In this document: piece after piece, positions 10,068 to 11,569 of the stretch
Position numbering within the stretch: position 1 is the first letter of the stretch
How the letters are laid out: the number at the start of each line of letters is the position of its first letter
Source: a virus
Lineage: Duplodnaviria; Heunggongvirae; Uroviricota; Caudoviricetes
Strand: one strand, 5' to 3'
Virus record (IMG/VR): IMGVR_UViG_2698536348_000004
DNA length: 12,440 bases
Notes under the pieces: model-generated
The model's input: the letters and a program-made list of their open reading frames with translations, nothing else
The model's database searches: none
Told to the model about the DNA's origin: nothing
Program-made: the position numbers and the translations under genes

Positions 10068-10529
10068 ATGAGAATACTAGGTGTTAGAGCGGCGCCCAAA
10101 GTTACATCTTTTGTTGTATATTGCACTAATGAGTCTGCACTCAAATGTGTTGATGTTATTAAAATACCTTCGACCTTAGACACACCAGAAAAATTAAAGT
10201 ATGTGAGAAATAACATCCTCGACATTCTTAATTTATATAATGTTGAATTAGCTGCCATACGCGTTACTGAATCAAACTCTGATAATCTTAGCATTGACCG
10301 CCTTTATATAGAAGCTGTTATTCAAGAAGCATTTTCAAGCAGTGATGTAAGAAAATATTACACTATTAGAAAATCTGGCATGAAATCATCATTGAACCTA
10401 ACAGAGATCGAGTATAAAGAAATATTGAAGTCACACCGCAATATAAATGGAATCGATAATTCTGGTTTTACAGCTGAAACAAATGAAGCTGTTTTGGCTG
10501 CACTATCTGCGGAGGTAAGGGGATGCTAA
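10068..10529 (+). CDS. Hypothetical protein (153 aa), translationally coupled to the kinase gene
   Basis: AGGA 10 nt upstream of ATG 10068; stop TAA (10527-10529) overlaps the kinase ATG (10523-10525) in the sequence ATGCTAA; very AT-rich. Confidence 0.65.
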   Translation: MRILGVRAAPKVTSFVVYCTNESALKCVDVIKIPSTLDTPEKLKYVRNNILDILNLYNVELAAIRVTESNSDNLSIDRLYIEAVIQEAFSSSDVRKYYTIRKSGMKSSLNLTEIEYKEILKSHRNINGIDNSGFTAETNEAVLAALSAEVRGC

Positions 10530-11569
10530 CTCCATACAAAAGAGCTGATGTAGAATTCGAATGGATTAGTGATCTAGAAGAACAGGGTTGTTTTTCAAAA
10601 GTATATCTGGCTCATGACAGACACCTAGCTCATGACTTGGTGATTAAAGAAATAGAAAAAAAAGAAAACACTAACCACGACGACTACTTTAATGAAGCAA
10701 GGCTTCTCTATAAACATGCACATCCAAATATTGTGCAAGTTCAGTATGCTGCTCAATGTGAGAGCAATATCTATATAGCCATGCCATTTTATCATAATGG
10801 TTCGCTAAACCAATTAATGAAAAAAAATAATCTTACAAGCAGGGAGATAATACGGTATTCCATTCAATTTTTAAGTGGACTTTATCATATACACTCAAAA
10901 GGTCTTATGCATTTTGATATAAAACCTAATAACATTATGATATCAAACAGAAATGAGGCCATGCTATCTGACTTTGGATTATCTCAGTTAGTCAATGAGG
11001 AATCGAGAGCTGCGCCTGAGTTTGGATATCATTTTCATGTGCCACCGGAATATTTTTCTTTATCAACAAATGATTATAATTTCACATATGACATATATCA
11101 GGCAGGATTAACCATATATAGAATGTGTGTTGGACATGATAATTTTGAAAGAGAAAGATCTGCATTTAGCACGATTGAACAACTCAGAGAGTCGATAATT
11201 AATGGCTGCTATCCATTAAAAGAGTATCCTCCCCATATACATAAAAAATTAATAACAATAGTGAACAAATGCATTCATGTAGATCCAAATGAAAGATATC
11301 AATCCGTACTAGATGTACTAAACGATCTCTCAGCTATAAGTGATGGCGTTCTTGACTGGCGTCTACAGATGACGAAACCAACTAACGGCACATGCGAATG
11401 GCAAAAAAAGTCTGGGGACGCTATACTGTCTATAGTTTTTGACGCAGAAAATTCGTCTACTACTGGTTTTCGTTTATACGATGATGGGCGGAAAAGGCGT
11501 GCTACGAACTTAACAATATCCTCAGGATGTACCCCTACAAAACTGTATAGGTTATTAAAGGATAACTGA
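10523..11569 (+). CDS. stk: Eukaryotic-like Ser/Thr protein kinase (Stk-like, non-RD type) with a C-terminal extension
   Basis: 348 aa; motifs LVIKEI (Lys42), HFDIKPNN (Asp132, Asn137), SDFG (Asp150), PPE (activation segment); residue numbers counted from the ORF translation. Occupies the cI-pL slot where 933W stk is reported. Confidence 0.8.
   Translation: MLTPYKRADVEFEWISDLEEQGCFSKVYLAHDRHLAHDLVIKEIEKKENTNHDDYFNEARLLYKHAHPNIVQVQYAAQCESNIYIAMPFYHNGSLNQLMKKNNLTSREIIRYSIQFLSGLYHIHSKGLMHFDIKPNNIMISNRNEAMLSDFGLSQLVNEESRAAPEFGYHFHVPPEYFSLSTNDYNFTYDIYQAGLTIYRMCVGHDNFERERSAFSTIEQLRESIINGCYPLKEYPPHIHKKLITIVNKCIHVDPNERYQSVLDVLNDLSAISDGVLDWRLQMTKPTNGTCEWQKKSGDAILSIVFDAENSSTTGFRLYDDGRKRRATNLTISSGCTPTKLYRLLKDN

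Follow-up and report, generated by a model that had tools for sequence, protein, structure and literature searches.

This report concerns a kinase gene in a window of 12,440 nucleotides (nt), the whole stretch of DNA analysed, from the viral record IMGVR_UViG_2698536348_000004 (Caudoviricetes). The window is a lambdoid immunity and early region, in which Q, the nin genes, P, O, cII, and cro lie in this order on the minus strand, and pM, cI, L0084 (orf113), L0083 (orf153), stk, L0081 (orf54), tM, nutL, and N follow one another on the plus strand. The open reading frame (ORF) in question, stk, runs from an ATG at 10523 to a stop codon at 11567-11569 and encodes 348 amino acids (aa), according to the ORF list and its translation. 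Its product is identical in 348/348 residues to AAD25427.1, the Stk kinase of phage 933W, so the comparison with 933W Stk proposed in the initial annotation proved to be a comparison of one and the same protein. The nucleotide sequence is also that of 933W across the whole gene, with zero differences. In the cassette region, the DNA shares 99.9% identity with 933W and with many Stx1 and Stx2 phages (Stx, Shiga toxin). The interval 8307-12333 differs from 933W by only four bases, none of them inside stk, and 8307-9973 is identical. Judged by this identity, ORF 10523-11569 is stk of a 933W-type Shiga-toxin prophage, and the finding of a kinase here is already known.

Relative to 933W (AF125520), stk is placed identically, downstream of cI, and its neighbours L0084, L0083, and L0081 are unchanged. 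The prophage differs from 933W in an IS629 insertion in gene N and a few single-nucleotide polymorphisms, and the Stk protein is unchanged. The maintenance promoter pM (PRM; 8856..8883, plus strand) drives cI and the downstream genes; its coordinates derive from the 933W annotation, shifted by an offset of 6599. The promoter is contained in the oR1-oR3 operator region (about 8828-8898). The first gene of this lysogen-expressed operon is the repressor gene cI (8891..9598, plus strand; ORF list and 933W annotation). The intrinsic terminator tM (11735..11766, plus strand) ends the cI-to-orf54 transcript; the terminator scan found AGCCCGGCCTCAGCGCCGGGTT followed by a T-run there, and its position coincides with the annotated tM of 933W. 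The first 36 codons of N (12225-12333) are identical to those of 933W N, and the window from 12334 to its end (12440) is 100% identical to the IS629 terminus as in phage Stx2a_F422. Because 933W identity stops at 12333 and the IS629 terminus follows, N is interrupted by IS629 in this prophage. The insertion has probably crippled N-dependent early transcription and left the PRM operon intact, including orf153 and stk.

The catalytic core of Stk

Stk (10523..11569, plus strand) is a non-RD Hanks-type kinase of 348 aa, and its catalytic domain comprises residues 21-270 (10583..11332, plus strand). The Pfam Pkinase profile (PF00069) matches with E=2.2e-46 and 158.8 bits (cut-off 31.7), aligning residues 21-260 with profile positions 9-253 of 263. 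The initial annotation had read the kinase motifs from the translation of 10523-11569 and had proposed an alignment to this family. Every residue that it named is where it was placed, well outside what chance would give, and the profile alignment confirms the register, with no motif misassigned. K42 (nt 10646-10648) lies within LVIKEI, and the catalytic loop is H130-F131-D132-I-K134-P135-N-N137 (nt 10910-10933). Next come S149-D150-F151-G152, with DFG at nt 10970-10978, and P174-P175-E176 at nt 11042-11050. The glycine loop reads E19-E20-Q21-G22-C23-F24-S25-K26-V27. A phmmer alignment of Stk with NEK7 pairs 'mhfdikpnn' with 'mhrdikpan', 'sdfgl' with 'gdlgl', 'vppe' with 'mspe', and 'eqgcfskvy' with 'grgqfsevy'. 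Since each Stk motif is thereby put in register with HRD, DLG, SPE, and GRGQFS, the motifs are correctly assigned.

Conservation was assessed in 60 Stk homologs with 39-86% identity, and a second set of 77 homologs was used for residue 131. Except for F131, all key residues of Stk (G22/S25, K42, E58, H130-F131-D132, K134, N137, D150-F151-G152, Y169, P175-E176, D190, and R258) are invariant in the 60 homologs, as are V27, P135, W279, and W293. The full Hanks catalytic set (K42, E58, D132, N137, D150, E176, and R258) is thus present in 60/60. The residue before the catalytic Asp, F131, is Phe in 57/60 and 74/77 homologs and Arg in none, which bears out the earlier description of a non-RD kinase with Phe in place of the Arg of HRD. 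The adenosine triphosphate (ATP)-binding loop had been called degenerate, and this also holds, as the central Gly (G22) alone is kept of GxGxxG. Many homologs have the Gly shifted to position 19. The third position of the loop is Ser (S25), the same as in active NEK7, and the canonical GxGxxG is not essential for Hanks kinase membership or activity. Because non-RD status and the reduced glycine loop are conserved family-wide, they are ancestral, selected traits and not decay.

The motifs bear on specificity as well. The loop HFDIKPNN is of the Lys-Pro-x-Asn type of Ser/Thr and dual-specificity kinases and not the HRDLAARN or HRDLRAAN of tyrosine kinases. The P+1 region, FGYHFHVPPE, differs from the PxxWxAPE of conventional protein tyrosine kinases. 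The Pfam PK_Tyr_Ser-Thr profile scores 101.9 bits on Stk versus 158.8 bits for Pkinase. The structural neighbours of Stk are a mixture of Ser/Thr, Tyr, and dual-specificity kinases (BRAF, MST2, CSK, EGFR, MEK, and Wee1). Dual specificity is predicted for Stk on the basis of the Lys-Pro-x-Asn loop and these mixed neighbours. In the NEK7 alignment, Y169 occupies the P+1-loop 'GT' threonine position of Ser/Thr kinases. This residue may be the tyrosine that is autophosphorylated, or it may help to determine which substrates are preferred.

The earlier conclusion that Stk is an active enzyme and not a pseudokinase agrees with the invariance of the catalytic set and with the activity of the identical protein in the relevant statements of citing papers. 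According to these papers, activity was already established experimentally, so this conclusion was known before. The invariance of every catalytic residue and the activity described in the literature were the grounds for rejecting a pseudokinase. Other kinase families were also rejected. Stk scores 122.1 bits against a cut-off of 460 for MAD6 (NCBIfam NF047741) and 122.3 bits against a cut-off of 450 for the PknB/Stk1 PASTA kinase (NCBIfam NF033483), with no PASTA match in Pfam, and it falls far under the NCBIfam cut-offs for PknD, BREX PglW, and the lanthionine-synthetase kinases.

The C-terminal domain of Stk

The initial annotation had placed a C-terminal extension beyond about residue 270. 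The kinase core indeed ends near residue 270, and residues 271-348 (11333..11566, plus strand; about 78 aa) make up a distinct domain that is modelled with confidence. With the family alignment, AlphaFold2 gave a mean predicted local distance difference test score of 88.4 and a predicted template modelling score of 0.89 for Stk, with local scores of about 95 for residues 280-348. The high template modelling score implies a fixed packing of this domain against the kinase. The model contains antiparallel strands at 290-297, 300-307, 312-319, and 324-326 and a terminal helix at 338-347. The domain is found in all Stk homologs, with W279 and W293 invariant in it. Profile searches with the domain alone returned only noise (E >= 0.095 in the PDB and scattered single-member matches in Pfam), and structure comparison gave no match to it among solved kinase structures.

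Mean pairwise identity over 77 loci is 25% for the C-terminal domain, 50% for the kinase core, and 44% for orf153. These values indicate that, within the module, it is the kinase tail that evolves fastest, and not the partner. Since the domain diverges about twice as fast as the core, a role as a sensor or target-recognition domain is plausible.

orf153, the obligate partner of stk

The gene directly upstream of stk is orf153 (933W L0083; 10068..10529, plus strand), which encodes a RuvC-fold protein. The junction of the two genes, read directly from the sequence, is GGAGGTAAGGGG-ATG-C-TAA (10508..10529, plus strand). The stk ATG lies inside the last orf153 codons with a 7-nt overlap, and GGAGG (Shine-Dalgarno) is found just upstream. 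To judge from this layout, orf153 and stk are translationally coupled. The linkage was scored in both directions, from 88 kinase-seeded loci (80 species) and from 80 orf153-seeded viral contigs. In the kinase-seeded set, an orf153 homolog is located directly upstream on the same strand in 88/88 loci, and across phyla the two genes overlap or abut, typically by -7 to +5 nt. In the orf153-seeded set, the kinase directly downstream is intact in 72 contigs and frameshifted in 5, and the contig end truncates the remaining 3 loci; no orf153 without a kinase was found among the 77 informative viral loci. Pairwise identities of orf153 and the kinase are correlated (r=0.85), and both average 44%. The same pairing is seen in Pseudomonas, where the kinase lies in a non-lambdoid island adjoining Abi_2, and a 152-aa upstream ORF, 41% identical to orf153, overlaps the kinase start. 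The identity with 933W Stk, the reported tyrosine specificity, and orf153 (not orf54) as the obligate partner had all been missed in the initial annotation.

The RuvC / RNase H-like fold of orf153 comes from the fold search of its predicted structure alone, with 12-15% sequence identity to RuvC. The Pfam RuvC profile (PF02075) gives 14.2 bits, under the cut-off of 22.2 (E=0.042), the orf153 family profile has no significant match in the PDB, including none to RuvC, and no PADLOC model corresponds to orf153. The residues G5, R7, P10, P34, P40, L43, R47, D52, A62, E68, R78, E82, E87, and E140 are invariant, and the conserved charged residues cluster in the region of the former active site. R7 (nt 10086-10088) aligns with the catalytic Asp of the RuvC 'GID' motif in the Pfam match and is Arg in 44/44 members. 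An hhalign comparison with E. coli RuvC also pairs R7 with Asp, although this alignment is weak, its RuvC query is approximate, and it is supporting only. The catalytic carboxylate tetrad of RuvC is therefore incomplete in orf153, in which Arg7 stands at the position of E. coli D7; E68 and E140 are possible counterparts of RuvC E66 and D141. The first metal-binding Asp is essential in RuvC. As this ligand is Arg in every member, orf153 is more likely a module for binding or sensing than a canonical resolvase. It also differs from the RuvC Holliday-junction resolvase in its gene, which is always coupled to a kinase and not to ruvAB.

A profile search of 1.84 billion representative proteins recovered 433 relatives of orf153 at E<=1e-3 and 250 at E<=1e-10. 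Among the relatives listed, nearly all are stand-alone proteins of about 150-175 aa. Homologs carry the label 'RuvC-like' in PHROGs, 'RuvC family protein' from PGAP in some E. coli (NZ_CP133871.1), and 'hypothetical protein' in most others, so that the gene is annotated inconsistently. No description of a defence pair consisting of a RuvC-like protein and a kinase was found in the searchable literature. The two-gene architecture and the RuvC-fold partner thus appear undescribed in the searchable literature and in PADLOC.

Distribution and genomic contexts

A homolog search with Stk found hundreds of full-length relatives of 337-353 aa, and a scan of species-representative genomes found at least 491 loci encoding one. 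These relatives span Gamma-, Beta-, and Alphaproteobacteria, Bacteroidota, cyanobacteria, and Ignavibacteria. Homolog pairs were seen next to an LlaJI restriction-modification (R-M) system with ArdA, next to a Type I R-M system with an integrase, next to Abi_2, and as a moron among prophage tail genes. Such contexts are typical for defence cargo. In addition, the kinase-defence models of PADLOC match Stk at 1e-37 to 7e-50.

The cassette itself is present in 225/5,426 complete E. coli genomes (about 4%), mostly O157-type strains, and at this frequency it may influence which phages superinfect Stx lysogens. A C-terminal fragment of 220 aa, 100% identical to Stk, heads a protein cluster (P0013) of 330 members, compared with 579 for the intact protein. 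The kinase is split into two ORFs in 5/77 informative viral loci (L092, L102, L110, L119, and L148). The split or frameshifted stk alleles suggest either that a costly gene is often inactivated or that sequencing errors recur.

Reported biology of Stk

The biology of Stk was taken from papers citing Tyler & Friedman 2004 or Friedman et al. 2011. In their passages on Stk, it is described as a eukaryote-like tyrosine kinase (PMC3681748, PMC3564112), and stk is stated to be co-transcribed with cI from PRM (PMC3564112, PMC3430580). The relevant statements further report that Stk shows little or no activity in cells that are not infected and becomes activated by HK97 infection (PMC3681748, PMC6356687, PMC8008677). 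Stk is said there to cause the exclusion or abortive infection of HK97 (PMC3681748, PMC6356687, PMC3564112, PMC8008677). According to a statement in PMC5143411, its autophosphorylation protects Stk from degradation.

Proposed mechanism and alternative explanations

Taken together, the data point to stk as a catalytically complete abortive-infection kinase of the PRM operon, which probably forms a two-component module with orf153 and would be gated by orf153, by its own C-terminal domain, or by both. The probability of this reading is estimated at about 80%. In the lysogen, transcription from PRM passes through cI, orf113, orf153, stk, and orf54 and ends at tM. According to the literature, the kinase is little active until HK97 superinfection activates it; Stk then autophosphorylates on tyrosine and becomes stabilised, and the infection is aborted.

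In the 2011 work of Friedman and colleagues, HK97 gp41 is reportedly required for Stk activation. The early-left genes of HK97 are listed in its original record as 37, 38, 39 (abc2), 40, erf, 42/42.1, 43 (kil), and 44 (cIII). Because the numbering runs 40, erf, 42, erf occupies slot 41. The erf product matches the Pfam ERF family with E=2e-44. In the HK97 sequence AF069529, this gene (24175-24780; 1676-2281 of the extracted locus L171) is labelled 'Gp40', which duplicates the label of the neighbouring gene 40, and by position it should be gp41. The 'Gp40' label could hide that 'gp41' is the Erf recombinase. By annotation, 933W encodes the Red-type exo/bet/gam and not Erf, which would fit self-tolerance. 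In the preferred model, the nuclease-altered RuvC-fold protein would sense the phage recombinase or its branched DNA and then release or activate the kinase. This model is preferred because the presumed trigger gp41 falls in the slot of the Erf single-stranded DNA-annealing recombinase. A resolvase-shaped partner together with a presumed recombinase trigger suggests that the module monitors phage recombination, which is the most speculative step of the argument. It is tentatively proposed, with less than even chances, that Stk is one half of a widespread, hitherto undescribed two-component defence in which an Arg-for-Asp RuvC-fold protein senses an Erf-type recombinase or branched DNA and switches on the non-RD kinase, whose tail docks the sensor.

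Several points weigh against the two-component reading. The role of gp41 is uncorroborated, and no text naming gp41 together with Stk was found in the searched literature. Should the published complementation have been done with stk alone, there is no strict requirement for orf153, at least under overexpression. Strict synteny demonstrates co-function and not the identity of the sensor protein. Finally, the catalytic loop is of the Ser/Thr type, so that the 'tyrosine kinase' label comes from experiment only and the enzyme may be dual-specific.

The alternative that survives best, possible though rather unlikely, is that Stk is a self-sufficient abortive-infection (Abi) kinase, with direct sensing of a phage protein by, for instance, its C-terminal domain, and that orf153 is only an antitoxin-like inhibitor or chaperone which silences a toxic kinase, as HipB upstream of HipA does. 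A small upstream gene overlapping a toxic enzyme is the classic layout for toxin-antitoxin systems of type II and is found here, and Stk is reported as nearly inactive in uninfected cells in the relevant passage of PMC3681748. Those parts of the literature that deal with Stk treat it as an exclusion factor. The C-terminal domain is fast-evolving, as expected of a specificity determinant, and split alleles of stk occur commonly in E. coli, as would fit a costly toxin. However, orf153 has no helix-turn-helix (HTH) or other known antitoxin fold but a full RuvC fold with charged residues conserved at the former active site, and it evolves at the rate of the kinase, unlike many fast-evolving antitoxins. 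This alternative also overlaps with the two-component reading, as both make the pair one module.

It is improbable that the roles are reversed, with Stk as sensor or regulator that phosphorylates the RuvC-fold protein and orf153 as the effector nuclease that cuts phage or host DNA. The loss of the first metal-binding Asp to Arg in 44/44 orf153 members and the sub-threshold Pfam RuvC score (14.2 against 22.2 bits) speak against such a nuclease, and the published phenotype is described, in the passages concerned, as kinase-driven. Although Stx-phage accessory genes are often discussed as virulence-related, a synteny without function, in which orf153 is a hitch-hiker or the kinase serves mainly lysogen physiology or virulence rather than defence, is effectively excluded by reciprocal co-occurrence in 165/165 informative loci with start/stop overlap in several phyla and unrelated contexts; the neighbours of homolog pairs are moreover defence genes, and deletion of stk left the attaching/effacing phenotype unaffected (PMC3681748).

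The value of the kinase finding is therefore that of a correct annotation, namely a 933W-type Stx prophage immunity region with an intact stk. What is added is that Stk, the classic 'single-gene' system, appears to form a strictly conserved pair with a RuvC-fold protein that is catalytically altered. If the two-component reading is true, it would explain mechanistically how an immune kinase of bacteria is kept inactive and then triggered, and a resolvase-derived sensor would join the defence sensors that watch phage recombination.

Accessory genes orf113 and orf54

Two further genes flank the pair in the PRM operon. orf113 (933W L0084; 9659..10000, plus strand) encodes a DUF3024 protein (Pfam E=2.1e-31), and its homologs are found in 6/88 kinase-seeded loci, all of them in enterobacterial prophages, and in 34/80 viral loci. 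Over its full length, orf113 matches the PADLOC candidate defence family PDC-S43 with E=5e-42, and the operon may carry in it a second, independent defence gene. orf54 (933W L0081; 11572..11736, plus strand; ORF list) is a small basic ORF that starts 2 nt past the stk stop and belongs to PHROG 4063, of unknown function. Its homologs are confined to enterobacterial versions, in 6/88 kinase-seeded and 52/80 viral loci. orf113 and orf54 were considered as constant components of the system and rejected, as both are restricted to the enterobacterial prophage versions. ORFs of 53-61 aa at or overlapping the kinase stop are nonetheless seen in 933W, Proteus, Elizabethkingia, and one Pseudomonas locus; small ORFs after the kinase lie at 11572-11736 (plus strand) of the window, 8047-8208 of locus L173, 6007-6192 of L007, and 6053-6214 of L002. 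The orf54 hidden Markov model (HMM) picks up only the enterobacterial members of these small ORFs.

Comparison with known kinase systems

Non-RD kinases of eukaryotic innate immunity, which reportedly include IRAK, RIP, and the plant pattern-recognition-receptor kinases (as discussed by Dardick and Ronald in 2006), are related to Stk by analogy only, with no evidence of specific shared ancestry beyond the Hanks superfamily. Stk2 of Staphylococcus is said, in the 2016 work of Depardieu and colleagues, to be a Hanks-type Abi kinase that a phage protein activates and that has many host proteins as substrates. Compared by description only, it shares the Abi logic with Stk and differs in lineage and architecture. 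To our knowledge, no RuvC-fold partner has been reported for Staphylococcus Stk2. HipBA resembles the orf153-stk pair in layout only, with a small upstream gene that overlaps the gene of a toxic kinase and a kinase that is silent until triggered. In contrast to Stk and orf153, HipA falls outside the Hanks-type kinases and HipB acts as an HTH repressor, whereas orf153 has a RuvC fold.

PD-T4-6 is a single-gene Ser/Thr-kinase defence system that was found in an E. coli pangenome screen (Vassallo et al. 2022, PMC9519451). It is likewise a eukaryotic-like kinase in anti-phage defence, and its PADLOC HMMs match the Stk kinase domain with E=1e-37. The match of the best model covers Stk residues 20-273, and all matches end at about 273-276, never covering the C-terminal domain. 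Furthermore, PD-T4-6 is defined as one gene, whereas Stk always occurs with its RuvC-fold partner. If the two-component reading is true, defence-annotation tools mislabel this family as the one-gene PD-T4-6.

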